Shown piece by piece: positions 905-39,928 of a stretch of 64,000 nucleotides of DNA. A program made the translations under genes and the position numbers. The notes beneath the pieces are model-generated. The model saw nothing but the letters and a program-made list of their open reading frames with translations, made no database searches and was not told the DNA's origin. Source of the DNA: Candidatus Yanofskybacteria bacterium RIFCSPHIGHO2_01_FULL_44_24 (GTDB lineage: Bacteria; Patescibacteriota; Minisyncoccia; 2-02-FULL-40-12; GWA2-44-9); assembly GCA_001794215.1 (NCBI GenBank), contig MGJK01000002.1:3310-67309 (forward strand), in the 5' to 3' direction. Each line of letters opens with the position of its first letter. Positions within the stretch are counted from its first letter, which is position 1.

Positions 905-1633
905 ATGGGGATAAGATACAGAGTTAATGAGGCGTTCTTTGATAGGTGGAGCCCGAAAATGGCATATGTTTTAGGGTATTGGTATGCCGACGGTTCAATA
1001 TATCCATCAGCTCGAGGCAGTTATCTAAGCGCAACGAGTATTGATAGGGAGATTATTTATAAGATTAAAGATTGGTTAAAATCAGAACATACGATTAGAG
1101 AAGAAAAGCCCGCCGGGTTAAATAGAAAAACTAGGTTTATTTTAAGAATAGGAAATAAAAGTTTATATAATGCTCTTCGAAAATTGGGTATTTATCCAAG
1201 TAAGTCATTGACAGTAAAGTTTCCGAATATCCCAAGTCATTTTTTAAGTCATTTTGTGAGAGGCTATTTTGATGGAGATGGGTGTATATTTCTAGAAATG
1301 AGGAAAGGTATAACCAGAGATCGGATTATAAAGAGACTGTCGGCAATATTTACCTCGGGTAGCCAGAATTTTCTAGTAGAGTTATGTAAATTGCTTGGAC
1401 GCTCATTAAAACTTAAGCAGAGCAAGATTTACAGAGGCCATCGATCTTATCAGTTAAGGTATTTTACCTCTGATAGTATAGAGTTATTTAAATTTATGTA
1501 TGGAAACTGCAGTAGGGGCGCCTATCTGACAAGAAAATTCGACTATTTTGGAAGATATTTTAAGTTACGTCCGCAAAAGTTAGATGTTAGTATTAAAAAA
1601 ATACTTGATAAACATGGCCACGTGGCGAAGTAG
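905..1633 (+). CDS. LAGLIDADG homing endonuclease (double-motif, single-chain)
   Basis: Two LAGLIDADG-type motifs, LGYWYADGS and VRGYFDGDGC, lie ~100 aa apart. It is a free-standing 242-aa ORF between infB and tRNA-Cys. Confidence 0.8.
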   Translation: MGIRYRVNEAFFDRWSPKMAYVLGYWYADGSIYPSARGSYLSATSIDREIIYKIKDWLKSEHTIREEKPAGLNRKTRFILRIGNKSLYNALRKLGIYPSKSLTVKFPNIPSHFLSHFVRGYFDGDGCIFLEMRKGITRDRIIKRLSAIFTSGSQNFLVELCKLLGRSLKLKQSKIYRGHRSYQLRYFTSDSIELFKFMYGNCSRGAYLTRKFDYFGRYFKLRPQKLDVSIKKILDKHGHVAK

Positions 1634-1688
1634 CAAACGCATCGGTCTGCAAAACCGACATTCGTGGGTGCAAGTCCCATCGTGGCCT
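1616..1688 (+). tRNA. tRNA-Cys (anticodon GCA)
   Basis: Cloverleaf: acceptor GGCCACG/CGTGGCC, anticodon stem TCGGT/ACCGA with loop CTGCAAA, T-arm GTGGG-TGCAAGT-CCCAT. 73 nt. The T-loop is slightly non-canonical. Confidence 0.6.
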
Positions 1689-7909: not shown

Positions 7910-9303
7910 AAAACTTTTTCCAGCTGGTGAGCTGCATTGAGCAGGGTTTGCTCGTCAAAATGTTTTCCGATCATTTGGAACCCGATCGGCAGGCGGCTGT
8001 TTTTACCGAGCCCGGCCGGAATTGATATTCCGGGAAGGCCGGCTAAGTTCACGGGGACAGTATATACGTCCTCAAGATATAAAGAAAGAGGATCGGATGC
8101 CTTCTCCCCTATTTTGAAGGCTGTTGTCGGGGATGTGGGTCCGACTATGACATCGACTTTTCCGAAAGCTTCATCGAAGTCTTTTTTGATGAGCGCCCGT
8201 ACTTTTTGGGCTTTGAGGTAATAAGCGTCGTAATATCCGGATGACAAAGCATAGGCCCCGAGCATTATTCTTCTCTTTGGTTCCGGTCCGAATCCGTGAG
8301 ATCTTGATTCAAGATAAGTATCCGAAAGCGTCGATCCACCATGAGACGAATAGCCATAGCGGATTCCGTCAAAGCGGGCGAGATTAGAGGATACCTCGCT
8401 TGGCACTATGATGTAGTATGAAGCAAGAGCATATTCGAAATTTGGCAGGCTTATATCCGCAATCTCGCATCCTAAATCCTCGAGCTTGGCTATGGCGTAT
8501 CTTATTTTTTCCTCTACTTCCGAGCTCAGTCCTTCTCTGAAAAATTCTTTGGGTACCCCTATCTTCAAACCTTTTATATTTTTGTCGAGGTTTTTGGTAA
8601 AATCAGGCACTTCACGAGGAACGGTGGTTGAATCAAATTTATCGGTTCCGGCAATTATGCCCAGGACCAGAGCGGCATCGTAAACATTTTTTGTCAGCGG
8701 TCCGATCTGATCAAGCGAAGAAGCCATTGCAATCAGGCCATGGCGGGAAACGCGTCCATAGGTGGGCTTAAGCCCCACCACCCCGCACATGCTGGCAGGC
8801 TGTCTAACGGAACCGCCGGTATCGGAACCCAAGGCAAAAACGCACAGATCCGCGGCTACGGCCGCGGCCGAGCCGCCTGAAGATCCGCCGGGAACCCGTT
8901 TTACATCGTGAGGATTCTTCGTTGGTCCGAAAGCGGAGTTTTCAGTGGATGTTCCCATAGCAAATTCGTCTAAGTTTGTTTTTCCGAGAAATTGGACGCC
9001 GGATGACCTAAGCTTGCTAACGGCCGTCGCATCATAGGCGGATATGTAGTTTTCAAGTATTTTTGATCCGGCCGTAGCCGCCGTACCCTCTATCAGCATA
9101 TTATCTTTAATTGCGCACGGTACGGCGGATAGAGGCTGATCGGGTAGGATGTCGGTCCGGTTTTCAAAGACAGACAGGTAAGCATTCAGCTTGTTGTTTT
9201 CTATCTTTATCTTGGCGTTGTAATATTTGAAAATTTCTTCAGCGGAAAATTCACGTGTTTTTAATCCGGCCAAGATATCTTTTATTGTATAGTTTTTAGC
9301 CAT
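7906..9303 (-). CDS. gatA: glutamyl-tRNA(Gln) amidotransferase subunit A
   Basis: Amidase signature [13 protein letters not shown]…[13 protein letters not shown]. Confidence 0.9.
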
Positions 9304-9604
9304 TCTTATTTAAAACAGATTTTACTTTGATAAATCTTTTTTCTGAGCGAGGGGCTTGTCCTATCAGTTTTTCATTCAGTTTGTCGCTCATTTCAAAGTC
9401 AGCTCGATGCTTGTCGGGGCGGCCGGAATTAGTAAGGCCGGTTACTTGGTATAGGGGTTCAACATTTTCAGTATCGAGCTCATTCAGCTTATTGATGTAG
9501 TCAATAATCAAAGAGAGTTCCTTGCGGAACTTATCTTCTTCTGCCCCGGATATCCTGATTCTGGCCAGATTGGCTATATGTTTTATTTCTTTTTCAGAAA
9601 GCAT
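9296..9604 (-). CDS. gatC: glutamyl-tRNA(Gln) amidotransferase subunit C
   Basis: ~100-aa protein immediately upstream of gat[19 protein letters not shown] matches the GatC pattern. Confidence 0.75.
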
Positions 9605-9630
9605 GTCTAAAAATTAGCATAATCAAAGGA

Positions 9631-12128
<2,498 letters not shown>

Positions 12129-26358: not shown

Positions 26359-26445
26359 GGTGAGGTGGCCGAGTGGTTTAAGGCAGCACACTTGAAATGT
26401 GCCGTACGGGAAACCGTACCGTGAGTTCGAATCTCACCCTCACCG
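26359..26445 (+). tRNA. tRNA-Ser (anticodon TGA)
   Basis: GGTGAGGTGGCCGAGTGGTTTAAGGC D-arm typical of tRNA-Ser. Anticodon stem-loop GCACA-CTTGAAA-TGTGC, long variable arm, T-arm GTGAG-TTCGAAT-CTCAC. Confidence 0.85.
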
Positions 26446-26488
26446 CCGAGGTTTAGCGAATAGTGATTCCCCATTTAAATATAGACAT

Positions 26489-27139
26489 ATGGCTCATTTA
26501 ATAGATTTAAGAAAAAAACCGAAAGAGGCAGTAAAAAAGATTGAAACCGTCAGAAAGATCGGCTATCCTCCTTTGCGTCGCGATAGTAAAAGGCTGAGCC
26601 GGCCGGTTATTAGCAGTGAAAGTGGCGTCAGGGTATCTAATAGCGTCTTAAGGGCGGTAGATAATGAGCACAGACTTGCCAGGCCCGTTATTTCTTGGGA
26701 GGCCCCATCGTTTTACTATAATCCGCAGAAAAAATACTTATCAATGATCATCATGGGTTTGGTAGCTGCCGGAGGCGGACTGTGGATCTTTCAGAAAGAC
26801 AGCTTATCGGCTATTTTTCTGATGATGACATCTTTGATGTTTATTCTTTACGCCAACAAAAAGCCGACCGTATCTCAGATTATCGTTAATGATACCGGAG
26901 TATCCGTTGCTGATACGCACTATCCTTACAGGGATCTGAAATCGTTTTGGATTGATTACAATCCCGGGGGTAACAAGGAGTTGAGCCTTGAGTCAAAGAA
27001 GTGGTATCTCCCCTACGTAAAGGTGTCTATCGCCCAAAAGGATCCTATTGAAATCAGATCCCTGATGTTAAGTTTTATTCCAGAAAAGCAGCATGAAGCC
27101 TCAATAGCCGATTTAATTGCCAGGAAAATCGGCCTTTAA
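26489..27139 (+). CDS. hypothetical membrane protein (216 aa)
   Basis: Internal ATG chosen because the longer ORF overlaps tRNA-Ser(TGA). Two TM helices in the middle. Confidence 0.45.
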   Translation: MAHLIDLRKKPKEAVKKIETVRKIGYPPLRRDSKRLSRPVISSESGVRVSNSVLRAVDNEHRLARPVISWEAPSFYYNPQKKYLSMIIMGLVAAGGGLWIFQKDSLSAIFLMMTSLMFILYANKKPTVSQIIVNDTGVSVADTHYPYRDLKSFWIDYNPGGNKELSLESKKWYLPYVKVSIAQKDPIEIRSLMLSFIPEKQHEASIADLIARKIGL

Positions 27140-31984: not shown

Positions 31985-33451
31985 CTATTCGGCCTTTTCT
32001 GTAAACTCGAACTCCACATTGTCTTTATTCACGGAAGCCCTAATTTTGCCGGAAAATTTCGGACGTCGATAAAGCTCTCTTGCTAACGGCCGTTTCAGTA
32101 TCGATTTGATCTTATGGTTCAGCAGTCTTGCTCCAACCTCCGGCCGATGCGCGCTTTTATCAAGTATATGCTGTTTTACGGCCCCATCTATATCGAGGCT
32201 GATTCCCTTGTCAAGAAGATTTTGACAGAAAAGTTCGACCTGGTCGTTGACTATTTGGAGAAGGACGGCTTTAGACAGTGGTCTGAAAACAACTACATCA
32301 TCCAACCTTCCGCGAAATTCCGGAGGAAATGTTTTTTCAAGCTCCTTCTCGGCTATTCCGAGGATTTTGTTTTCCAAATTCTCTAAGCCATCTTCTGTAC
32401 ATTCGGTTCTATCGGAAGAACTGCCCGATCTGGTCTGACCGAATCCGATCGATCGGCCCTTTAGAATATCACCCATAGTTCTCGCACCGACATTAGAAGT
32501 GAGAATGATGAAGCTGTTCCTAAGGTCGCTCTCTATCCCGTTAGCCAAGGTTACCTTGCCGTCTTCCATGATTTGAAGAAGCAATCTATGGATAGCCGGA
32601 TCAGCTTTTTCAATTTCATCAAAAAGGATTATTGCCATCGGGTCTTCGTTTTCAACGTCTTCATCGGCAGGTGTAAGCAGTTTGGGATTAAGCCGGCTCA
32701 GCTCCATATCGATATCGGATAGTTGCCATATAACCTGAGATTCTTTGATCCGCAACTCAACCGCCATTCTGCTGAATTCGGATAACTCTATTTCGGTCAT
32801 TTTGGTCAGGGCCTCTATGTCCCGCATGTCTATATTGGGCTTATGAGGAGGATCTCTTCGGTCCGCATTCATATTGCGGGAAATGTCAAAATAAAATTCC
32901 AGAGCGTCTCTTATCAAAAGAAGATCATTATTCAGGGTCATAATTTTTTCCTGATTTTTTTGAAATTCTCTTCTCAGGCCTTTTAGCTCTCTGAGCAACT
33001 CCATTTTTAAGCCCAATAACTTCTGAACTCTTGGATCCGGGTTATCAGCTTTCGGATTGACATCTCGTCCGTTCTTAAATATTACCTCGGGAGACAGAAG
33101 CGGTTTGTTGTCGAAGCCGATATAGCTTGGCGGAGCGCCAAGGAGAGTCTGAATAGTGTGGGGCTGGCTTAGCGTTTCACATTCTATTTTCGTTAAAGCA
33201 TCTTCGCTGCCAAAGTAAAACTCTGCCAAAGCGCGAGCTGTCTCCGTCTTCCCGACTCCGCTGGGACCCAAGAACAGTACGACGCCCACCGGTCCTCTTT
33301 TTTTAGTCTCTATTTTTCTGTTAAGCACTTCATTGTCTTGGATCAGGTTTGCAACGGTATAGACAGCCTTGGGTTGACCCCGAACTCTCTTAGATAAGTG
33401 GTCTTTAAGGCGTTCAATCTCGTTTAGAAAGTCATTACCACCCATAGACAC
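31985..33451 (-). CDS. Clp/Hsp100 D2-type AAA+ unfoldase (ClpA/ClpC second-module-only) with ClpP-docking IGF loop and a ~130-aa insertion
   Basis: GPSGVGKTE Walker A, ILFDEIEKA Walker B, LTSNVG sensor-1 and PEFRGRLD; a C-terminal GAR motif is present. KGRSIGFGQ aligns with the IGF/IGL ClpP-binding loop. Collinear with ClpA D2 by eye. Confidence 0.8.
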   Translation of the reverse strand: MSMGGNDFLNEIERLKDHLSKRVRGQPKAVYTVANLIQDNEVLNRKIETKKRGPVGVVLFLGPSGVGKTETARALAEFYFGSEDALTKIECETLSQPHTIQTLLGAPPSYIGFDNKPLLSPEVIFKNGRDVNPKADNPDPRVQKLLGLKMELLRELKGLRREFQKNQEKIMTLNNDLLLIRDALEFYFDISRNMNADRRDPPHKPNIDMRDIEALTKMTEIELSEFSRMAVELRIKESQVIWQLSDIDMELSRLNPKLLTPADEDVENEDPMAIILFDEIEKADPAIHRLLLQIMEDGKVTLANGIESDLRNSFIILTSNVGARTMGDILKGRSIGFGQTRSGSSSDRTECTEDGLENLENKILGIAEKELEKTFPPEFRGRLDDVVVFRPLSKAVLLQIVNDQVELFCQNLLDKGISLDIDGAVKQHILDKSAHRPEVGARLLNHKIKSILKRPLARELYRRPKFSGKIRASVNKDNVEFEFTEKAE

Positions 33452-33613: not shown

Positions 33614-33638
33614 CAAAAAAAGAACCCGTTTTCGGGTT
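33614..33638 (-). terminator. intrinsic terminator immediately after Ubl gene
   Basis: Minus strand: GAACCCG-AAAA-CGGGTTC followed by TTTTTTT. Confidence 0.7.
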
Positions 33639-33649
33639 CATGGGGTCGA

Positions 33650-33931
33650 TTAACCTCCAGAAAGGCGAGGCGCAATCGTTACCGTGGACGGCTGGACCAG
33701 TATAGGATTTTCCTTCAGCTCGCCCTCATGGTGGTTGATCAATCTTGAGTTGAGCAGAATAGAATGTCCGGCCAAGTTCAGACCGGGATGGGTCTTTAGA
33801 AACTTTTTCAGCAGGTCTGATAGCCGAGCGCCCGGCTCCAAGCTGACCTTCTCGGGCTTGCCGCCTATAGTGACGGTGTGTTCAAGCTCTTTTGTGCTTG
33901 GATTTCTATCCTTCGGTTTCTCTGTCTCCAT
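33650..33931 (-). CDS. ubiquitin-like / ThiS-MoaD-like beta-grasp protein ending in Gly-Gly
   Basis: 93 aa. The C-terminus …VTIAPRLSGG-stop is a free diglycine with no pro-sequence. A TVTIGG…beta-grasp-like core is present. Confidence 0.65.
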   Translation of the reverse strand: METEKPKDRNPSTKELEHTVTIGGKPEKVSLEPGARLSDLLKKFLKTHPGLNLAGHSILLNSRLINHHEGELKENPILVQPSTVTIAPRLSGG

Positions 33932-33956: not shown

Positions 33957-34613
33957 TTATATTATCTCTTTTTTATCCGTTTTTACAAGGGGAAGATCTT
34001 CGAAGTTGACGACTACTTCGAGGAATTTATCTCGAAAACTATCGTCCTTTTTGATAAGAATAAGAATTTTAGCCACAGCCGCCGCTACCGCCCAAAGAGC
34101 AGGCACTGTTTCTATTGTGGCACAGGCCGGGTTGAGGACTCTTTTATCGGAATACAGCATCTGTGCGTATTGGCTGATTGAACCTTGCTGGCGGGGGTTA
34201 AAAGCATAAACATAAGCCGTATTTCCACCCGTACGGGCCTCAATATAGTAAGAAACTGAAGCATCGTTTTTACAGGCTTCAAAGATTTCCCTTCTGGCGG
34301 CCATACTGTCCACCATTACGATGACTATTCCTCGCAGACGTAAAATGTCGCTTTGGTTTATTTTCACCGGCTCGGTTTTGATATTTTTTTCAGTCAGCAG
34401 GTAGACAATTTTCTTGAGCGAGTCTGCTTTCAAAGATCCGGCATCGGATAATCTGTAGAGCTGGTTATCGGTGTTATGGGATTCTACCTTGTCGTGGTCG
34501 AATACCTCGATTTCGCAGCCTATGGCATGAGCTATTTTGCTTATTAGAAGAGCCTGGAAGCTTCCCAAGCTTCCCGCGCCTATCAGGGTGATCTTTTCAG
34601 TCATCATCGTCAT
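33957..34613 (-). CDS. E1-like ubiquitin/ThiS-activating enzyme (ThiF/MoeB/HesA family)
   Basis: ITLIGAGSLGS Rossmann motif and FDHDKVESHNTDNQ (the DxDxVExSNLNRQ-type ATP-binding block). The protein is short (218 aa). Confidence 0.75.
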   Translation of the reverse strand: MTMMTEKITLIGAGSLGSFQALLISKIAHAIGCEIEVFDHDKVESHNTDNQLYRLSDAGSLKADSLKKIVYLLTEKNIKTEPVKINQSDILRLRGIVIVMVDSMAARREIFEACKNDASVSYYIEARTGGNTAYVYAFNPRQQGSISQYAQMLYSDKRVLNPACATIETVPALWAVAAAVAKILILIKKDDSFRDKFLEVVVNFEDLPLVKTDKKEII

Positions 34614-35205
34614 TTCCGGAAGTTTTAACTGGTTTTACAATCTTTACTTTTTGCTTGATTATTTCCGACATTCTTTCCTCATTATCTTTCAGCAGTCGCT
34701 CCAGCATCGACGGTGACAATTTTTCTGTAAACTCAAATTCTCTTATCAGTGTTCTTAAAAGAGGTTCCGGCCTGTAACGCCATAGTTCCATGTAGACTTG
34801 GCACCTCTTGTTCACTACCATAGCCAGCCACCAGTCGTAGTCTTGGCCTATAAGCCTCATAGTTGAAAGGTCTTCGTCGCTCAAACCCACCCCGGACCAC
34901 ACATGACTATGCCACCAAAGTCTTGCCTCCTGAATTATATTTTCCTGGCCGGCTAAAACCATTTTTTCCTGCCAGAGAAGATAAGCCGTTTCGTCGAATG
35001 TAGTTTTCACGAGGCTACAGGTCTGATCAAATACGATCGGCTCCCCATGGATTACATAGATCGAATCTCTTTTTTCGATTTTGGCTAAGCCCGAGACTTC
35101 AACTTCGCACACCATGGCGGCAAGCATAATTTCCACAAAAGTTTTAGGTTCGAATACAATTCTTGCGTTCTTGGAATTTCCCAAGTTCATCATAACCCGC
35201 CCCAT
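34597..35205 (-). CDS. JAB/MPN (JAMM) metalloisopeptidase
   Basis: JAMM motif HSHVWSGVGLSDED (HxH-x7-S-xxD) with an upstream Glu in …CEVEVSG. Confidence 0.75.
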   Translation of the reverse strand: MGRVMMNLGNSKNARIVFEPKTFVEIMLAAMVCEVEVSGLAKIEKRDSIYVIHGEPIVFDQTCSLVKTTFDETAYLLWQEKMVLAGQENIIQEARLWWHSHVWSGVGLSDEDLSTMRLIGQDYDWWLAMVVNKRCQVYMELWRYRPEPLLRTLIREFEFTEKLSPSMLERLLKDNEERMSEIIKQKVKIVKPVKTSGNDDDD

Positions 35206-37022
35206 TGCGGCGTATAGCCGGACTTTGGATTTAATATTCCGGATTCGACAATTTTTTTCGCCACCAATAAAATATCGGCCACTTCGCCGGATAACTGAAG
35301 TCTCGCTATTTCTTGTATGGCGTCGCTTAGGGATTTGTTTTCGAAAATCGGCAGTTTAGGATCGGCTCCATCGGCCGAGAGGATCACATGTTTTAAAGTC
35401 GAGCTTAGTGATCCAAAATGTAACTCGGGCGGAGATTCCGGCTGAAGTCTCAAGATATAACCGAGAACTTTTTGGAGCGTTTCTCCGGAAGATTGTTCCG
35501 AATGAAAATATACCTGCAACTCATTTGGGGTTACTTCTATCCCGAAAACACCAGGACCATCTAAAAGCTCGACTACCCCTAACTGGGCCATGTAGCCGAT
35601 CTTATCGAGCTTTTGTTCTAAAATTTTTCCGTTTTCCCAAGTTTCTATTGCCGCATGATGCAAAGAAACTCTTTCTTGCTGAAGAAACGCCATGTCGTCT
35701 TTGAGCTTGTTTATTTTGGCTTTTAATTCGTTGGATCGACGGGCAAAAAGCTGGGTGCGGTATACGTCGATGAAGTGATTTTTTTCCCTTATTTTTTCTT
35801 CCGGACTTGAGTAGGTATCGGTATCTTCTTCTCGATCCCAGTCTGAAGTTTTGCGCTGATTCGGAGTACTGCTTTCTTTGATTAGGAAGGTAATCAGTAC
35901 ATGAACTAAGGCGGCGATATCCAGATCAATCATCAGTTGCTGGATGTCTCTGTTAAGACCATTGGTATTGTCTGTGCCGAAGCAAGTGTTAGCGCCATCT
36001 CTTGCATGGATGTGCTCATAGGGTCCGCGGTAGCGTTTTTGCATAAATCTTATACCATTCAAGTCTTTTGATGCGGGGTCGATCATTATTTCGTATTTAC
36101 CGAGATCATATCTATGAGATTTTACAAGATCATTGTCCGGAACCTGAAATATTCTGCCGGTGCTTATGATTATCTTGGGAAGAGCGGTATCTTCGCCGAT
36201 TATCCTCACCGTTTCCACGGCCTCCATGGCCAATATCTTTTCAAATTCTGCCTCAAGGTTCGTTTCCGCCAATCTGGCTGTGACATTTTTTATGCGCTCT
36301 TCTGCATCGGCAAGCTCCAGAGCCCTTTTATAGTAGTCATATCTCCTTGTCAGGGTTTTAGCCGTCAGTTTTTCAAGTTCTTCGGAGTTCTTGGTTATCC
36401 TTTGGGTCATGAAATTAAGAAAGTATTTTCTCATTTCGGACTCGATATCTTTTCTGCCGTCCCCTTTTCTTATTTTTTGGCAATTCAGTTCTCCGAGCCG
36501 GCGGTACGAATCTTTCCAATCAATCGCTCCATCCATTCGGCCGGCATAAATTATATGGGGGAGGCTCCAGTACAAAATCCAGTTGAGCATTTTATAGTCT
36601 TCCGTATTAGAAACTCCCCCTAATACGCCCGGAAAAACATAAAGATCTCTTTGTAGGATCCAGCCGATCGTATAACCTTCCGGAGAATCGATCGGTATCC
36701 CGAAGTTAGCCTTAGCTTCTTCAAGCGAAGGAGATTCAGGAGACAGTTTCTGGCCAAAAAGCGTTTGCGGACGCCGTCTATTCTTCTGCTTAGACTTTTC
36801 CAGGTAGCTGTTTACGTGAATGTAGACGGTATTGTCGGCCGGATTTGATGTGCCTGAAAACATGCCGTTGGGCATGTCTATAGATAGTTTAATATTCAGC
36901 GCCGCGCCGATACGGTTTAGAAAATGCAGGAATTTTCGAAGACTCAGCGCGTCTTGAGGACTGGCGCAGTTTTCTTCGTTTACCGTAGCATGTTCAAATC
37001 CGCGGGAATCAGTCTCTTTCAT
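35190..37022 (-). CDS. large hypothetical protein (610 aa) co-operonic with JAB/E1/Ubl; possible E2/E3-like or adaptor
   Basis: Overlaps the JAB start. Contains long coiled-coil segments and a His…Cys block YEHIHARDGANTCFGT. No confident family assignment. Confidence 0.5.
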   Translation of the reverse strand: MKETDSRGFEHATVNEENCASPQDALSLRKFLHFLNRIGAALNIKLSIDMPNGMFSGTSNPADNTVYIHVNSYLEKSKQKNRRRPQTLFGQKLSPESPSLEEAKANFGIPIDSPEGYTIGWILQRDLYVFPGVLGGVSNTEDYKMLNWILYWSLPHIIYAGRMDGAIDWKDSYRRLGELNCQKIRKGDGRKDIESEMRKYFLNFMTQRITKNSEELEKLTAKTLTRRYDYYKRALELADAEERIKNVTARLAETNLEAEFEKILAMEAVETVRIIGEDTALPKIIISTGRIFQVPDNDLVKSHRYDLGKYEIMIDPASKDLNGIRFMQKRYRGPYEHIHARDGANTCFGTDNTNGLNRDIQQLMIDLDIAALVHVLITFLIKESSTPNQRKTSDWDREEDTDTYSSPEEKIREKNHFIDVYRTQLFARRSNELKAKINKLKDDMAFLQQERVSLHHAAIETWENGKILEQKLDKIGYMAQLGVVELLDGPGVFGIEVTPNELQVYFHSEQSSGETLQKVLGYILRLQPESPPELHFGSLSSTLKHVILSADGADPKLPIFENKSLSDAIQEIARLQLSGEVADILLVAKKIVESGILNPKSGYTPQWGGL

Positions 37023-37054
37023 TCCACATCCTTTTTAAGGAACGGGCTATAGAG

Positions 37055-37083
37055 CTTATATGATAAAAAAATTGTTTTTGCAA
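37055..37083 (-). promoter_or_regulatory. putative sigma70-type promoter for the 610aa-JAB-E1-Ubl operon
   Basis: Minus strand TTGCAA-17 nt-TATAAG, located ~35 nt upstream of the start codon. Confidence 0.35.
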
Positions 37084-37109
37084 CCTCGCCAAGGCTTTGA
37101 GGCAGCGAT

Positions 37110-37143
37110 TTTAAAAACAAAAAACTCCGCATTTGCGGAGTTT
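37110..37143 (-). terminator. intrinsic terminator after AAA ATPase gene
   Basis: Minus strand CTCCGC-AAAT-GCGGAG followed by TTTTTTGTTTTT. Confidence 0.6.
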
Positions 37144-37151
37144 GAATATGT

Positions 37152-39119
37152 CTAAGATAGCTTGGGCTTGGCGGTATTGCTTTCCGCCCCGATTATTCCA
37201 AGGCTCCTGGCCGCTTTATACCATCTGCCCTCTTTAGGGATAAATCTCAAGCTGTTACAGAATGAAAGGGCGAGTAGGGTCATCTGGTTATGGATTAGCA
37301 TATCTCTTGGCGGGATATAGTCGTTTAGGGCTTCAAGCAGGTGTTTTCCGGAGAGAGCTTCATTCATTCCGGCCGAGTTTGCAATAGCTCTCCTGATTAT
37401 ATTTTCAATCTGGCCGCCGGTGAAATAAATTTCATCTTCTCCGTCCTTGTCCATATCTAATGCCAACGAGTGAAATTCATCCGGGTCGCATTTACGAATT
37501 TCTTGACTAATAAGGTGGCAATGGGACATCCGGGCGAATTCTCTGACTAATTTAAGTTCGACTTCAGAGGTTTTCAGCGGAGAATTTGTCGCATCGGACA
37601 GGACGGCATATTTGTACAAAAGAGCTCCGACGATATCGACCCTCTCTTTGGCTGAAGGAGGGAAGAACGGTATCTTATCATCAAATCTTCCGTCTCTGAG
37701 CAGGGCCGGATCTATGAGGTCGGGCCTATTAGATGCCGCAATCCACATGACTTTCCCGCGCAAATTGGTATCGGACATGAACATGAATAATCTTCCCTGA
37801 AGCCTGTTATTGACCCCGGAGTCCCCCACTGGAGCCTCTGATCTCGTCTGCAGTTCTTGATCAATCTCATCCATAAACACGACCACCGGAGCAAGCACTA
37901 AAATCAATTCGAGGGCGAAGTCTAAGTTTCTTTCCGATTGTCCGACCCATTTTTCCCGGATATTCTTCAGGGTTACGAATGGAACTTCGGCTTCATATGC
38001 CACTGACTGGGCAAAAACAGTTTTGCCCGTTCCGGGAGCTCCGAGCAGAAGTACTCCGGTAGGTATTGAGGAAAGATTGCCCGCCCGCATGTGTTCCACG
38101 ACACGAGCGATATAACGCTTATGCTCGTCGAGGCCGCCTATCGCTTTTATTCCGCAGATCGGCCTGATTACCTCAACTAATCCTCCGGATTGTTCTTCGA
38201 TAAATTTTTTCTTTCTTTCAAACAGAACTCTGTGGGTTATCGGTTCGGATTTGTAAGATGATTCTTTGACCAGGCTCGTGATCGCATTTATGGACATTCC
38301 AGCAGAGTGTTGGGCGAAGGCTCGAACGTCTAAATTTCTCGATGTTTCTCGGCCTTTTAAAAGCCACCCATACAGGAGGGCTCTTTTTGTTTGATCCGGA
38401 AAGTCTATCTTCACCGGGACTATTCCATGTGTCTCCGATTCCAATTGATTCGCTACCGAAGTCAGGCCCTCGGTCAAAAGAAATAAGATATTCCGGGATA
38501 AGCGTATCGACTGATCTTTTGATATAGTCAGCAGGTATACAAGTGCGGATCGGTCGTCGGACGAAGAAGAATGGGCAGAATTCGGCGGTACGATTGTCTC
38601 AAGATATTCGAACACTGCTCCGAAGAACGGCTTATGGGATTTATCGGCCAAGAACTTTTTAAATTCTTCCGGTTCCCGATCTTCGCGTATCAGCTCTGAC
38701 ATCTCGGCTTTTTTATCAATAATTTTGGTGACGTCTTTCCAGCCGATTCTTAGCATGTGGGAGAAGAGCTTAAGAGCGTAGCCAAGAGAATGTCTTTTTG
38801 CATGAAATTCTTCAACGGCCTCGTTTCCCCCGCCTAATGCCGGCGGAAGTTTCTTTGATTTAACGATGGCCAAAAACTTGAGGAATTTTTCCTCCGATTT
38901 TTCACTGGCGAATCGGATACCCTCGCCTATGTTGTAAAAGGCGACGAACTCAGCCTCAGATAGCGGCGAATTATTCAAGATCAGGTCATTAATTGATTCG
39001 AGTCGGGTATTGCTCCCTCTCGATACTAAAAAGGCATCAGACACGTTCAGGTGCAGCAAGAACGTATGAGATGCCCCTGATTTGAATTTATTGTCAATTT
39101 CCTTGAGCCAGCCTTCCAT
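37152..39119 (-). CDS. classical AAA family ATPase (Cdc48/FtsH/PAN-like single AAA module) with ~330-aa N-terminal domain
   Basis: Walker A LLLGAPGTGKT, Walker B VVFMDEID, and second region of homology ASNRPDLIDPALLRDGRFD. Confidence 0.8.
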   Translation of the reverse strand: MEGWLKEIDNKFKSGASHTFLLHLNVSDAFLVSRGSNTRLESINDLILNNSPLSEAEFVAFYNIGEGIRFASEKSEEKFLKFLAIVKSKKLPPALGGGNEAVEEFHAKRHSLGYALKLFSHMLRIGWKDVTKIIDKKAEMSELIREDREPEEFKKFLADKSHKPFFGAVFEYLETIVPPNSAHSSSSDDRSALVYLLTISKDQSIRLSRNILFLLTEGLTSVANQLESETHGIVPVKIDFPDQTKRALLYGWLLKGRETSRNLDVRAFAQHSAGMSINAITSLVKESSYKSEPITHRVLFERKKKFIEEQSGGLVEVIRPICGIKAIGGLDEHKRYIARVVEHMRAGNLSSIPTGVLLLGAPGTGKTVFAQSVAYEAEVPFVTLKNIREKWVGQSERNLDFALELILVLAPVVVFMDEIDQELQTRSEAPVGDSGVNNRLQGRLFMFMSDTNLRGKVMWIAASNRPDLIDPALLRDGRFDDKIPFFPPSAKERVDIVGALLYKYAVLSDATNSPLKTSEVELKLVREFARMSHCHLISQEIRKCDPDEFHSLALDMDKDGEDEIYFTGGQIENIIRRAIANSAGMNEALSGKHLLEALNDYIPPRDMLIHNQMTLLALSFCNSLRFIPKEGRWYKAARSLGIIGAESNTAKPKLS

Positions 39120-39928
39120 TAGCGGATCCCTTTTTGATATATGGCGTCGATAATCGGATCGCCGGGGAGAAGCACTTTATCTATCATCCCCGCTTCAAGG
39201 GCCTCTTCGGGTGCCATCAGCGTCTCGTTGTCGATGAAAGCCTTAACTAATTTGACCCTCTCTTTCTTATTTTTTAATAGATTCTTATCGTAACCCGCAA
39301 GATCCATTCTTTTAACCTGGAGCTCCGGTATTTTAGAATTGTCAGAAATCATTTCATAAATAGTCTGATTAAGCCGCGATTGGTATTTATGGACTTCTTC
39401 TATATCGTGTTCTCTTGCTCCGCCGGCGCCTCTTAGTCCGAAGTGGGTATGGGTTAATGTATTTTCAAGCGCATAGCGCCTTCTCGGAGTACCCATCATC
39501 AGGATTATTCCTCCCATACTCATGCTCTGGCACAGGTTTACTGTCCAGACCTCGATACCCTTTGCCTTAAGGTGATTCATGGCTTGGATGATTGTGAACC
39601 CGGCCTGAATATCGCCTCCCGGACTGTTGATGACGATTTTCACGGGGTCTTTGCTCTCTGTTCCCAAGATCATCAAAGATCCGTAAACTTCTTCGGCTAC
39701 GCTTGGAAAACTGCTTGGTGAAGAAATCTGCTGACTCGATATGATCTGGCTGAAGATCGGTATTGTTCGAGCTTCGCGAGCCAAGAATACCCAAGGATCA
39801 ACAAGGGTTACGGGTTTTTCGCTCCAGGGCTTAACAAGCATGACTCGTCTCCTTTCGATAATGTAAAAGATCGGAATACCAAGCATAATTTCATATAATT
39901 TATTAAGGGTCAATAGGTGTTTAGGCAA
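39119..39928 (-). CDS. ClpP-like serine protease (S14 family) with ~70-aa N-terminal extension
   Basis: INSPGGDIQAGFTIIQAM resembles the ClpP YINSPGG block. A catalytic-Ser block CQSMSMGG and a downstream His region are present. The start overlaps the holA stop. Confidence 0.7.
   Translation of the reverse strand: MPKHLLTLNKLYEIMLGIPIFYIIERRRVMLVKPWSEKPVTLVDPWVFLAREARTIPIFSQIISSQQISSPSSFPSVAEEVYGSLMILGTESKDPVKIVINSPGGDIQAGFTIIQAMNHLKAKGIEVWTVNLCQSMSMGGIILMMGTPRRRYALENTLTHTHFGLRGAGGAREHDIEEVHKYQSRLNQTIYEMISDNSKIPELQVKRMDLAGYDKNLLKNKKERVKLVKAFIDNETLMAPEEALEAGMIDKVLLPGDPIIDAIYQKGIR

Follow-up and report, generated by a model that had tools for sequence, protein, structure and literature searches.

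A six-gene cassette of Candidate Phyla Radiation bacteria that looks like a bacterial counterpart of the ubiquitin–proteasome system

The window, by which we mean the whole 64,000-nucleotide stretch of DNA that was analysed, carries six genes on one strand in the order ClpP-like protease, AAA ATPase, p610, JAMM peptidase, E1 and Ubl-GG. Its source organism is a tiny uncultured groundwater bacterium. All evidence presented here is computational and was drawn from metagenome-assembled sequence. A preliminary description had reported a ClpP-like open reading frame adjoining the gene for an AAA ATPase, and this pair is real: on the minus strand, the reading frame 39928..39119 matches Pfam CLP_protease (PF00574; 3.1e-27, 96.1 bits; gathering score 20.2), and the reading frame 39119..37152, of 655 aa, matches Pfam AAA (PF00004) over residues 356-485 (1.9e-27). 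The motifs listed at the time (GAPGTGKT, VVFMDEID, NRPDLIDPALLRDGRFD and LTHTHFG) were all located in the sequence. That description was right about the pair; as to the extent of the unit, it stopped at 37152, saw a third of it and missed four downstream genes, which probably give the pair its meaning. The features of the locus are as follows.

39885..39913, minus strand: promoter-like TTGACC-17-AATTAT, with TG, in the gap between holA and the ClpP-like gene (from a scan; a consensus match only)
39119..39841, minus strand: ClpP-like serine protease, 240 aa (Pfam CLP_protease, PDB ClpP matches, orthologue alignments, Shine-Dalgarno sequence and start)
37152..39119, minus strand: Cdc48/VAT-like tandem AAA ATPase, 655 aa (Pfam AAA, D1 and D2 profile matches, 31-sequence alignment)
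38166-39119, minus strand: degenerate D1 of the ATPase, residues 1 to ~318, without P-loop (N-domain profile against p97/Cdc48 D1)
37122..37143, minus strand: intrinsic-terminator-like hairpin, 9-bp stem and T-run, directly after the AAA stop
37055..37083, minus strand: promoter-like TTGCAA-N17-TATAAG upstream of p610 (read by eye from gap sequences)
35190..37022, minus strand: p610, 610 aa, probably E2-like and possibly an E2/E3 hybrid (conservation, PDB profile, hhalign, AF2 model)
35853-36275, minus strand: central Cys domain of p610, residues 250-390
34597..35205, minus strand: JAMM/MPN+ metallopeptidase, 202 aa (8-sequence alignment, PDB profile)
33957..34613, minus strand: minimal E1-like adenylating enzyme, ThiF fold, 218 aa (Pfam ThiF, PDB, alignment)
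33650..33931, minus strand: ubiquitin-like protein (Ubl), 93 aa (alignment, sub-threshold PDB matches)
33622..33639, minus strand: terminator-like hairpin after the Ubl stop, at the end of the tagging unit
31985..33451, minus strand: ClpB-D2-like single-ring AAA+ protein with a ~150-aa coiled-coil insert (Pfam AAA_2 and ClpB_D2-small; synteny)

We place the start of the ClpP-like gene at ATG 39841 and not at TTG 39928, because both the starts of its orthologues and a Shine-Dalgarno sequence put it there. The pattern 'ML.[KR].W' opens all ten orthologues and corresponds to residue 30 of the window reading frame when taken from TTG 39928, and AAAGGAG lies upstream of the ATG at a 7-nt spacing. 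The ~70-aa N-terminal extension previously ascribed to the protein was an artefact of calling the longest reading frame from the TTG; alignment to PDB ClpP leaves a true extension beyond canonical ClpP of roughly 10 aa. The same artefact produced the supposed overlap with holA, which ends at 39921, about 79 nt before the ATG. With a gap, a promoter-like site and a Shine-Dalgarno sequence between them, and an adjacency seen in one lineage only, holA is unrelated to the pair. Downstream, the ClpP-like and AAA genes are translationally coupled, but not through an ATGA overlap: the junction reads CGC-TAA-TGG, and the TAA stop and the ATG start share a single base (TAATG).

PDB ClpP chains match the ClpP-like protein at ~1e-15 with the catalytic Ser and His aligned. 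Two residues, Ser137 and the second H of THTH, His162, do not vary within the family; with E. coli ClpP as the reference they fall on its catalytic Ser and His. The position of the triad Asp is held by Glu in ten of 11 orthologues and by Gln in one. A loss of catalytic residues had been named as an objection to a working protease; of the three positions the Asp alone is replaced, and because Ser and His are invariant the protein does not appear to be an obvious pseudo-enzyme. Comparison with ClpXP, ClpAP and ClpCP shows the same arrangement of a ClpP-fold gene adjoining, and translationally coupled to, its presumed ATPase, with Ser and His conserved and an N-terminal segment that resembles the ClpP axial loop. 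The cassette protease nevertheless differs from those enzymes in the Glu that replaces Asp, in a 30-45-aa insert ahead of this Glu and in a conserved C-terminal PGDPIIDxI[FY] motif. Its scores fall below the cut-offs of all the NCBIfam ClpP models, and far below those for housekeeping ClpP (TIGR00493, 62.1 bits against 308.6; PRK00277, 75.8 against 249), so that it is not an orthologue of the housekeeping enzyme by this measure.

The ATPase encoded beside this protease belongs to the classical AAA clade and not to the Clp/Hsp100 or ClpX proteins, as had been recognised. Bit scores of the active domain decide the point: 179 against VAT D2, 175 against Cdc48 D2 and 167 against p97 D2, but only 92 against FtsH, with E values for the VAT, Cdc48 and p97 D2 domains of 1e-51 to 4e-48 and with VAT and Cdc48 D2 closest. 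This active D2 (residues ~319-655) has Walker A GAPGTGKT, Walker B DEID, a KWVG pore loop, sensor-1 N464 and Arg 475/478, and thus the Walker motifs, sensor-1, aromatic pore loop and second region of homology with Arg fingers of classical AAA proteins. In the 31-sequence alignment K366, D417/E418, N464, R478 and G393 are invariant, and W391 and R475 nearly so. The preceding ~330 aa had been taken for a novel N-domain; their profile instead aligns to residues 287-421 of p97, the D1 AAA domain (E = 4e-8), which gives the ATPase the tandem D1-D2 architecture of Cdc48, p97 and VAT. The latter three are unfoldases, working on ubiquitinated proteins or supplying 20S proteasomes. The ATPase begins directly with the degenerate D1, a Pfam search returning no N-terminal double-psi barrel (CDC48_N, CDC48_2), and it scores 104 bits against a cut-off of 803 for the NCBIfam CDC48 subfamily TIGR01243. 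Docking of the ATPase on the ClpP-like protein is left unsupported by motifs, because neither a ClpX-type IGF loop nor a conserved HbYX C-terminus is visible in the 31-sequence alignment, where the C-termini vary (..KPKLS, ..RTPV, ..TIKV, ..GQYL) and the penultimate position shows no conserved Tyr. Here too the cassette departs from ClpXP, ClpAP and ClpCP, whose ATPases are of the HCLR clade and carry the IGF/LGF loop.

One account of these two genes, in line with the preliminary description, would be a new stand-alone chaperone-protease pair, made of a classical AAA protein and an N-extended ClpP, co-transcribed with holA and followed by chance neighbours. The tight coupling of the pair agrees with it, and so do the signals between AAA and p610. 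A terminator-like hairpin equivalent to that of the window occupies the same place in all seven other loci examined, and sites similar to the promoter-like element of p610 were found in L001, L005 and L006 (the consensus scanner passed over the window site, whose -10 hexamer ends in G). Since a strong terminator-like hairpin and a promoter-like site separate them in all loci examined, the AAA and p610 halves are probably separate transcripts, linked by position and not by co-transcription. The holA overlap and the N-extension on which the stand-alone account draws are, however, artefacts, and holA lies next to the pair in a single lineage (window, L005, L085 and L166), FemAB, MiaA or an S1 protein preceding it elsewhere. 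Comparison of loci from Candidate Phyla Radiation metagenome-assembled genomes also speaks against it. The order AAA-p610-JAMM-E1-Ubl recurs in every locus where the contig extends far enough (window, L001, L003, L005, L006, L087, L162, L164, L165 and L166; L007 and L008 end at contig edges and were left out of this count), at AAA identities to the window of 31% to 100%. At least five upstream contexts are represented: PolA-Fpg-DUF3048-holA, RuvA-FemAB, rpoBC-S6-SSB-S18-PAP2, DnaE-aaRS-MiaA and an S1 protein. Because the linkage holds across these contexts and down to 31% identity, the four genes trailing the ATPase are not chance neighbours, and we regard a self-contained pair as very improbable. 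The identities of the six proteins drop together from locus to locus, as expected of a co-inherited unit. The pairing itself proved tight and recurrent among relatives: the ClpP-like gene lies immediately upstream of AAA in 11 of 14 loci and is absent from the remaining three, and the junctions are mostly 1-4-nt overlaps, with a 2-nt gap in L001. The ClpB-D2-like neighbour, on the other hand, occurs in the window and L005 only, Lon taking its slot in L166; it is lineage-specific and probably outside the cassette core.

The first of the trailing genes, p610, yielded no match in Pfam, NCBIfam or PADLOC and represents a small unannotated family. The protein is laid out as an alpha/beta N-domain, a long helix, the central Cys domain, a second long helix and an alpha/beta C-domain. 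Cys347 is near-invariant (69 of 70 sequences), and His337, which lies ten residues upstream, is kept in 62 of 68; this spacing equals that from HPN to Cys in UbcH5-type E2s. When the p610 profile was searched against the PDB with hmmsearch, an E2, UBE2L3, was the sole match that was not an artefact (E 0.05). Alignment by hhalign to human E2 sequences (P 3.6e-4, probability 37%) set the p610 His and Cys on the HPN His and catalytic Cys of the E2s. In an AF2 model of the Cys domain (pLDDT 92) the structural elements follow one another as in the UBC fold, alpha-beta4-loop(Cys)-alpha-alpha; a Foldseek search of the PDB with this model gave nothing significant, the best TM scores being 0.37-0.40 for UEV domains and 0.28 for UBE2S. 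Taken together, these data give moderate support to p610 as probably an E2-like conjugating enzyme.

The assignments of the other three genes rest on motifs and profiles. The JAMM peptidase has the exact motif E..HxHx7Sx2D, with E36, H99, H101, S109 and D112 invariant in eight sequences; it had no Pfam match at 0.01, and its profile found Caldiarchaeum Rpn11-like (4.8e-5), CSN5 (1e-3) and Rpn11 (0.025) in the PDB. It is a probable Ubl-processing and deconjugating enzyme. The E1-like protein matches Pfam ThiF at 1.2e-17 (64 bits against 28) and, below the cut-off, NCBIfam PRTRC_ThiF (3.7e-14). G12-A-G14..G17 (GAGSLG), D102, R107 and C164 are invariant in its alignment and cover the Rossmann ATP site, the conserved Asp/Arg and the crossover-loop Cys of such enzymes; its PDB matches run from ThiF (2.8e-9, E. 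coli ThiF best) to UBA5, UBA3 and UBA1. It carries neither a rhodanese nor a UFD domain. The window Ubl terminates exactly in Gly-Gly, which is invariant among orthologues ending in GG, GGN, GGA or GGKSLR; at its N-terminus is a charged tail of ~20-25 aa, and its sub-threshold PDB matches to the ubiquitin family (E 0.03-0.3) are in register with the ubiquitin C-terminus.

Such a set of genes could also belong to a sulfur-carrier or cofactor pathway of the ThiS/MoaD-ThiF(-JAB) type, for example CysO-Mec+, with the GG protein bearing a thiocarboxylate and not serving as a tag. Trios of JAB, E1 and ThiS/MoaD are present in sulfur pathways (PMC1779556), and the cassette E1 is a minimal ThiF-like protein closest to E. 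coli ThiF. We give this scarcely any credence. No sulfur-metabolism gene, rhodanese domain or cysteine synthase was found at any locus; a reading of the E1 sequence found no CxxC zinc site; the Ubl scores ubiquitin-family domains above MoaD; and the cassette further encodes a Cdc48-like ATPase, a protease and an E2-like protein with a conserved Cys.

With moderate confidence, we instead read p610-JAMM-E1-Ubl as a ubiquitin-like conjugation module. An evenly balanced case can be made for regarding the ClpP-like/AAA pair as the half responsible for degradation within a cassette of six genes and two units that bacteria of the Candidate Phyla Radiation (Parcubacteria-type) carry. Ubl tagging that feeds the Cdc48-like unfoldase and the ClpP-like protease is to us the best reading of the gene content, and one we would put midway between doubt and conviction. 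According to this proposal the minimal E1 would adenylate the C-terminal Gly-Gly of the 93-aa Ubl, might hold it on Cys164, and would hand it to Cys347 in the E2-like domain of p610, whose flanking coiled coils and terminal domains would choose the target. The Rpn11-like JAMM enzyme would trim Ubl precursors with residues after the GG and strip Ubl from conjugates. The ATPase, with a dead D1 ring and an active D2 ring bearing the KWVG pore loop, would engage and unfold tagged proteins, perhaps beginning with the charged N-terminal tail of Ubl, and would pass them into the chamber of the Ser-His-Glu protease. At loci that lack the ClpP-like gene, unfolding or segregation would be all that the ATPase does. 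The sequences show which genes and motifs are there, the families to which the AAA, ClpP-like, JAMM and E1 proteins belong, and the conserved linkage; that p610 works as an E2, that Ubl is joined to targets, that the ATPase recognises the tag and docks on the ClpP-like protein, and that degradation follows, are inferences.

In a different explanation the ATPase regulates or recycles the conjugation module and does not feed a protease. It would disassemble E1-E2-Ubl or Ubl-target complexes, compare TRIP13 on HORMA proteins or the Cdc48 segregase, and the ClpP-like protein would serve a restricted purpose of its own, for instance to process or remove one specific component. The constancy of the ATPase beside a ClpP-like protein that is dispensable in three of 14 loci is consistent with this, as are the missing docking motif, weak PADLOC TRIP13 matches to the ATPase (9e-4) and the dead D1, a feature of several remodelling AAA proteins. 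Translational coupling of ClpP-like and AAA genes at most of the loci that share them, however, usually marks subunits of one complex, and the D2 pore loop and motor motifs are of the processive translocase type. Other members of the ClpP family, to our knowledge, are all either chamber proteases that depend on an ATPase or prohead proteases of phages. A purely regulatory ATPase therefore seems improbable to us.

A more serious competitor, though still unlikely in our view, holds that the same machinery is an anti-phage or conflict system of the Bil, Bub or CBASS type II kind. Infection would lead to the attachment of Ubl to proteins of the phage or the host, and the AAA and ClpP-like proteins would be effectors or regulators and not agents of housekeeping proteolysis. 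All bacterial Ubl-E1-E2-JAB operons studied experimentally so far are immune systems (PMC10557695, PMC11601596, PMC10097602). The p610 family is rare and patchy, with ~100 cluster representatives in a set of 1.84e9 proteins, which suits an accessory role, in defence for instance, better than core proteostasis. The position of the cassette differs between lineages, distant relatives of the ATPase adjoin nSTAND, DO-GTPase2 and radical-SAM genes typical of conflict systems, and the E1 weakly matches the Cap2 'E1-E2' models of PADLOC (1.9e-8). Against this, PADLOC-DB 2023, which may lack Bil/Bub models, gave no match to p610, JAMM, Ubl or the ClpP-like protein; the flanks are housekeeping genes, and neither integrases nor restriction or other defence genes were seen at the examined loci; synteny is stable within one clade down to 41% AAA identity (window against L166); and tblastn of p610 against phage and plasmid collections found no copy. 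BilABCD (types I and II), Bub and CBASS type II Cap2/Cap3 do resemble the cassette as bacterial operons of Ubl (or cGAS tail), E1, E2 (in the cassette a probable one) and JAB/JAMM. In those systems the peptidase first trims the Ubl tail that follows the conserved Gly (PMC10557695); the cassette tails GGN, GGA and GGKSLR match this. Unlike the cassette, none of these systems has an AAA ATPase or ClpP-like protease, and the cassette differs further in an E1 that lacks the inactive adenylation and CYS domains and in a context that is housekeeping and not a defence island.

The preferred reading, tagging for degradation, finds parallels in the eukaryotic ubiquitin/Cdc48(p97)/26S system and the archaeal SAMP/Ub-like systems, the archaeal comparators being Cdc48/VAT/PAN with the 20S proteasome and including the Caldiarchaeum Ub-E1-E2-RING-Rpn11 operon. 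Common to all are a tag ending in GG (in the cassette a putative beta-grasp protein), an E1, an E2 (in the cassette a probable E2-like protein), an Rpn11-type JAMM, a Cdc48-type D1-D2 unfoldase and a protease that forms, or in the cassette may form, its own chamber. Among solved structures, the JAMM enzyme is nearest to Caldiarchaeum Rpn11-like and CSN5, and the ATPase to VAT, Cdc48 and p97. The cassette departs from them in a protease of the ClpP family (serine, S14) in place of the 20S Ntn-threonine proteasome; in an ATPase with a dead D1 and without double-psi barrel or HbYX tail; in the lack of a RING E3; in a 218-aa minimal ThiF as E1; in a probable E2-like domain embedded in a 610-aa coiled-coil protein; and in its host, a CPR bacterium. 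The actinobacterial Pup-Mpa/ARC-20S system is a bacterial route, as the cassette would be, along which a tag leads proteins to an AAA unfoldase of the classical clade and on to a chamber protease. The tag may supply a disordered end for engagement, and the cassette Ubl has its charged N-terminal tail. Pup, however, is disordered and not a beta-grasp protein, is ligated by the glutamine-synthetase-like PafA and not by E1/E2, and is removed by Dop and not by a JAMM enzyme; the protease is again the 20S, and NCBIfam pup_AAA scores the cassette ATPase at 70 bits against a cut-off of 505.

The literature we searched contained no description of a partnership between a classical-clade AAA ATPase and a divergent ClpP-like protease, nor of a six-gene Ubl-unfoldase-protease cassette; the cassette has the look of a ubiquitin–proteasome counterpart in bacteria that has so far gone undescribed. 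We suggest, somewhat tentatively, that CPR bacteria may own a true analogue of that system, in which Ubl, E1/E2-like and JAMM proteins would operate with a Cdc48-like unfoldase docked on a ClpP-family protease. If so, no earlier case of ClpP working with an AAA protein of the classical clade would precede this ATPase, and the cassette would be the first bacterial Ubl-directed degradation pathway outside pupylation.

The pairing of a ClpP-like protease with an AAA ATPase (37152-39928), which a preliminary description of this DNA had presented as co-transcribed with holA, was confirmed in part, and the interpretation placed on it was supported in part. The actual feature is bigger and more interesting than this pair. 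Directly 3' of the ATPase gene and on the same strand lie four genes that had been overlooked, encoding a 610-aa protein (p610), a JAMM peptidase, a ThiF/E1-like enzyme and a putative ubiquitin-like protein (Ubl).

Genes and hairpin of the cassette and its 3' flank
39841-39119, minus strand: ClpP-like protease
39119-37152, minus strand: Cdc48/VAT-like AAA ATPase, 655 aa
37022-35190, minus strand: p610, without a match in Pfam, NCBIfam or PADLOC
35205-34597, minus strand: JAMM protein, 202 aa, with the exact motif E36, H99-x-H101-x7-S109-x2-D112, invariant in 8 sequences
34613-33957, minus strand: ThiF/E1-like enzyme, 218 aa, with GAGSLG and an invariant Cys164
33931-33650, minus strand: Ubl, 93 aa, its C-terminus exactly Gly-Gly
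33639-33622, minus strand: second hairpin, 3' of the Ubl gene
31985-33451, minus strand: single-ring ClpB-D2-like AAA+ protein (Pfam AAA_2 and ClpB_D2-small)

Loci for comparison were fetched through homologues of the ATPase, and their ORFs were scored against the proteins of the window. The gene order AAA-p610-JAMM-E1-Ubl was found in every locus with a continuing contig (the window, L001, L003, L005, L006, L087, L162, L164, L165 and L166); L007 and L008 end at contig edges. Identity of the ATPase to that of the window ranged from 31% to 100% across the loci, at least five distinct upstream contexts were found for the cassette, and the identities of all six cassette proteins dropped in parallel from locus to locus. 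In 11 of 14 loci the ClpP-like gene directly preceded that of the ATPase, the two usually overlapping by 1-4 nt (in L001 they are 2 nt apart), and it was absent from L003, L087 and L162. Synteny in relatives upheld the ClpP-like/AAA pairing but not the association with holA, which adjoins the pair in one lineage only (window, L005, L085 and L166); outside this lineage the pair is preceded by a FemAB, MiaA or S1-domain gene. Which genes are present, their motifs, the families to which they were assigned and their linkage are shown here, and we place high confidence in the anatomy and linkage of the cassette. One variant cassette (L091, 2530-7188) encodes a JAMM-like protein of 376 aa in total, with a ~200-aa Pro/Ala-rich C-terminal tail, and has additional ORF space between the p610-like and JAMM genes. 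In L005 the E1-like ORF (9600-10010) looks short, at 124 aa, but 100 consecutive N interrupt the deposited sequence there, so that a masking or assembly gap, and not decay of the gene, accounts for it.

Both ORFs of the pair exist and matched their families (CLP_protease 3.1e-27; AAA 1.9e-27 at residues 356-485), and the sequence motifs quoted for the two proteins were all found in them. The gene boundaries had to be redrawn. The earlier call for the ClpP-like gene began at the first possible start, TTG 39928, and came with an overlap with holA and an N-terminal extension of ~70 aa. All ten ClpP-like orthologues (10/10) begin with 'ML.[KR].W', corresponding to residue 30 of the longest window ORF, and ATG 39841 has a Shine-Dalgarno sequence, AAAGGAG, seven bases 5'. 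With this start a gap of 79 nt follows the holA stop (39921), and a consensus scan found a promoter-like site within it, TTGACC-17-AATTAT. Given the orthologue starts, the Shine-Dalgarno sequence and the promoter-like site in the gap, the holA overlap and the greater part of the N-terminal extension vanish, and a functional link of holA to the pair is rejected on the same evidence. The ATGA overlap reported between the two ORFs is also incorrect, as the junction reads ...CGC TAA TGG..., with one base common to stop and start (TAATG).

The preliminary description had raised the possibility of catalytic loss in the ClpP-like protein. There is none at Ser137 and His162, which are invariant and line up with their catalytic counterparts in human and S. 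aureus ClpP, but where the triad has Asp, 10 of the 11 orthologues have Glu and the remaining one has Gln. This register was read against E. coli ClpP, and HMMER alignment to ClpP in the PDB gives the same register. The protein has an insert of 30-45 aa, and its orthologues conserve a C-terminal motif, L.PGDPIIDxI[FY] (39119-39200, minus strand), which is not found in canonical ClpP and is a candidate docking or gating element. The housekeeping ClpP model TIGR00493 gave 62 bits versus a cut-off of 309, and within the 64-kb window we found neither a second ClpP nor a paralogue of any cassette protein. By its TIGR00493 score the protein is distinct from housekeeping ClpP; it is a divergent member of the ClpP family and is probably active. 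ClpP is not so far known to work with ATPases other than those of the ClpX/A/C/E type.

The N-terminal domain of the ATPase, ~330 aa that had been taken as novel, proved to resemble the D1 AAA domain of p97/Cdc48, since in a PDB search, which replaced a weak hhalign comparison of the N-half with the C-half (P 0.0026), a 14-sequence profile aligned the N-terminal 320 residues with p97 residues 287-421 (E = 4e-8). No P-loop is left in the sequence of this D1. The C-terminal domain was nearest to D2 of VAT (1e-51, 179 bits), Cdc48 and p97, and the FtsH match was much lower at 92 bits. From the D1 and D2 matches we take the ATPase to be Cdc48/VAT-like, with a dead D1 and a live D2 and with the usual N-terminal barrel domain of Cdc48/VAT missing. 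It fell under every cut-off in NCBIfam. Over its 655 aa it is 100% identical to a hypothetical protein from a MAG of Candidatus Yanofskybacteria, a member of the Candidate Phyla Radiation (CPR)/Parcubacteria. Among 31 sequences, Walker A Lys366, Walker B D417/E418, sensor-1 N464, Arg475, Arg478 and the pore loop K-W-V-G are invariant or nearly so, and these are the hallmarks expected of an active translocase. Neither an IGF loop nor an HbYX tail was visible in the same alignment. Distant relatives of the ATPase (Chloroflexi and others) share the dead-D1/live-D2 build. Two of them, in L161 (Chloroflexi, 8001-10124) and L163 (8001-10115), are 27-33% identical and have an extra N-terminal segment of ~90 aa. 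Their neighbours are nSTAND1, radical-SAM, DO-GTPase2, a second AAA/NACHT-like gene and unknown proteins of >1000 aa, a neighbourhood that looks like a conflict system, and no Ubl gene was found beside either.

In the window, the stop codon of the ATPase gene is followed by a strong terminator-like hairpin (37143-37122), and the same holds for 7 of 7 other loci examined. The AAA gene and p610 are separated by ~85-365 nt (window 37023-37151, minus strand), with a GC-rich hairpin and T-run immediately after the AAA stop in all eight loci compared (window, L001, L003, L005, L006, L007, L087 and L162). A promoter-like site, TTGCAA-N17-TATAAG, is found 3' of the hairpin in the window, and such a site occurs in several loci. 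The hairpins and the promoter-like site suggest that the cassette is probably two transcription units, ClpP-like-AAA and p610-JAMM-E1-Ubl, joined by position. The gap itself forms a conserved terminator/promoter module within the cassette. The ClpB-D2-like gene was rejected as a core part because it occurs in two loci only (window and L005) and lies behind a terminator, and because L166 has Lon in the corresponding slot. A coiled-coil insert of ~150 aa (residues ~116-267) interrupts its ATPase domain, and the protein matches PADLOC PDC-M37B (4e-31) and DolB (7e-18).

The genes around the cassette are housekeeping genes (PolA, Fpg, DUF3048, holA, RecG, MetK, TsaE, ComM and PNPase), and these flanks bear on its role, for which the evidence points both ways. 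Phage defence rather than proteostasis would fit the rare and patchy occurrence of the cassette and has precedent in Bil, Bub and CBASS, whereas a cellular role is favoured by the housekeeping neighbours, the absence of PADLOC matches and the stable vertical synteny within one clade. An Rfam search of the whole window found five tRNAs and no other RNA families. The tRNA genes at 26359-26445 and 1616-1688 (plus strand) overlap two mechanically called ORFs (26399-27139 and 1584-2765), both of which are probably non-coding towards their 5' ends.

The JAMM profile matched a Caldiarchaeum Rpn11-like protein (4.8e-5), CSN5 (1e-3) and Rpn11 in the PDB. PDB matches of the Ubl were weak, to ubiquitin-family domains, with the alignment reaching the Ub C-terminus. 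Orthologues of the Ubl end in GG, GGN, GGA or GGKSLR; in the Bil system, a JAB peptidase strips tails behind the conserved Gly (PMC10557695). The ubiquitin alignment with the Ubl profile begins at position 26, and in all orthologues the ~20-25 aa ahead of the predicted beta-grasp (residues 1-~25; 33857-33931, minus strand) make up an N-terminal tail that is charged and of low complexity. It is tempting to speculate that this tail may offer the unfoldase an unstructured place to start, as Pup does.

The p610 family is small. Among 1.84 billion proteins it has ~100 cluster representatives, of which 68 lie at E <= 1e-10, and the clusters of its relatives are all 'hypothetical' or nameless. A word-index protein search returned 3 proteins for the p610 alignment and 0 for the central domain, the index being defeated by coiled-coil composition in both cases, and tblastn found no copies in phage and plasmid collections. 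In the central domain (residues 250-390), Cys347 is conserved in 69 of 70 sequences and His337 in 62 of 68, ten residues apart and with F-G next, the same spacing as that of HPN...Cys in UbcH5-type E2s. A full-length p610 profile had no match in the PDB. The central-domain profile (33 sequences) matched UBE2L3 chains (E ~0.05; profile positions 14-93 versus E2 residues 10-88), the sole match besides spurious designed armadillo repeats. When hhalign compared the domain with four human E2s (P = 3.6e-4, probability 37%), His337 fell over the HPN His and Cys347 over the E2 catalytic Cys. AF2 modelled the domain from a 61-sequence alignment (pLDDT 92, pTM 0.86) as a helix, four strands, a long His/Cys loop and two helices, and this predicted order of elements is that of the UBC fold. 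Foldseek of the model against the PDB gave nothing significant, and a full-length AF2 model from 3 sequences (pLDDT 59) gave coiled-coil noise only. We consider it rather probable that p610 is E2-like. Conjugation without an E2 exists in SAMP/UbaA; by that analogy, conjugation could still occur here if p610 is not an E2. In BFVD, the central-domain model (35853-36275, minus strand) matched unannotated viral proteins of 420-590 aa (A0A516LAI7, A0A516ML27, A0A516KZW4 and A0A1B0WLX5; E ~6e-3, probability 0.98-1.0, TMq 0.46-0.53), with scores above any PDB match.

The parsimonious reading of the cassette joins a module for ubiquitin-like conjugation with a Cdc48-like unfoldase and a ClpP-like protease, and we give the full mechanism an even chance. 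In this mechanism p610 would carry out the E2 chemistry, targets would be conjugated, the ATPase would recognize the tag and dock to the protease, and degradation would follow. Functionally, the proposed system would be analogous to Ub/SAMP-Cdc48/PAN-20S and to Pup-Mpa-20S. In the literature searched, which gave partial coverage and included Iyer et al. 2006 (PMC1779556), Chambers et al. 2023 (PMC10557695) and the Bub preprint (PMC11601596), we found no bacterial Ubl/E1/E2/JAB operon tied to an AAA ATPase or ClpP and no report of a Ubl system in CPR bacteria. Iyer et al. called ClpS-mediated links to protein stability 'tantalizing, but uncertain' and went no further (PMC1779556).

If this reading is correct, the principle of joining a tag, an unfoldase and a chamber protease would have arisen or been put together in bacteria for a third time. 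The parts would be of ubiquitin type (beta-grasp-GG, E1, E2-like, Rpn11-like JAMM and Cdc48-like ATPase), with ClpP replacing the 20S proteasome. With six small proteins, reconstitution in E. coli should be feasible, which makes the idea directly testable, and the cassette would provide a compact orthogonal module for tag-directed degradation in synthetic biology. The finding bears on the origin of the ubiquitin-proteasome system, namely on which couplings of Ub tagging, Cdc48 and proteolysis are older than eukaryotes, and on the partner rules of ClpP. It bears equally on the biology of CPR bacteria, which are ultra-small and mostly uncultured and whose proteostasis is barely known.
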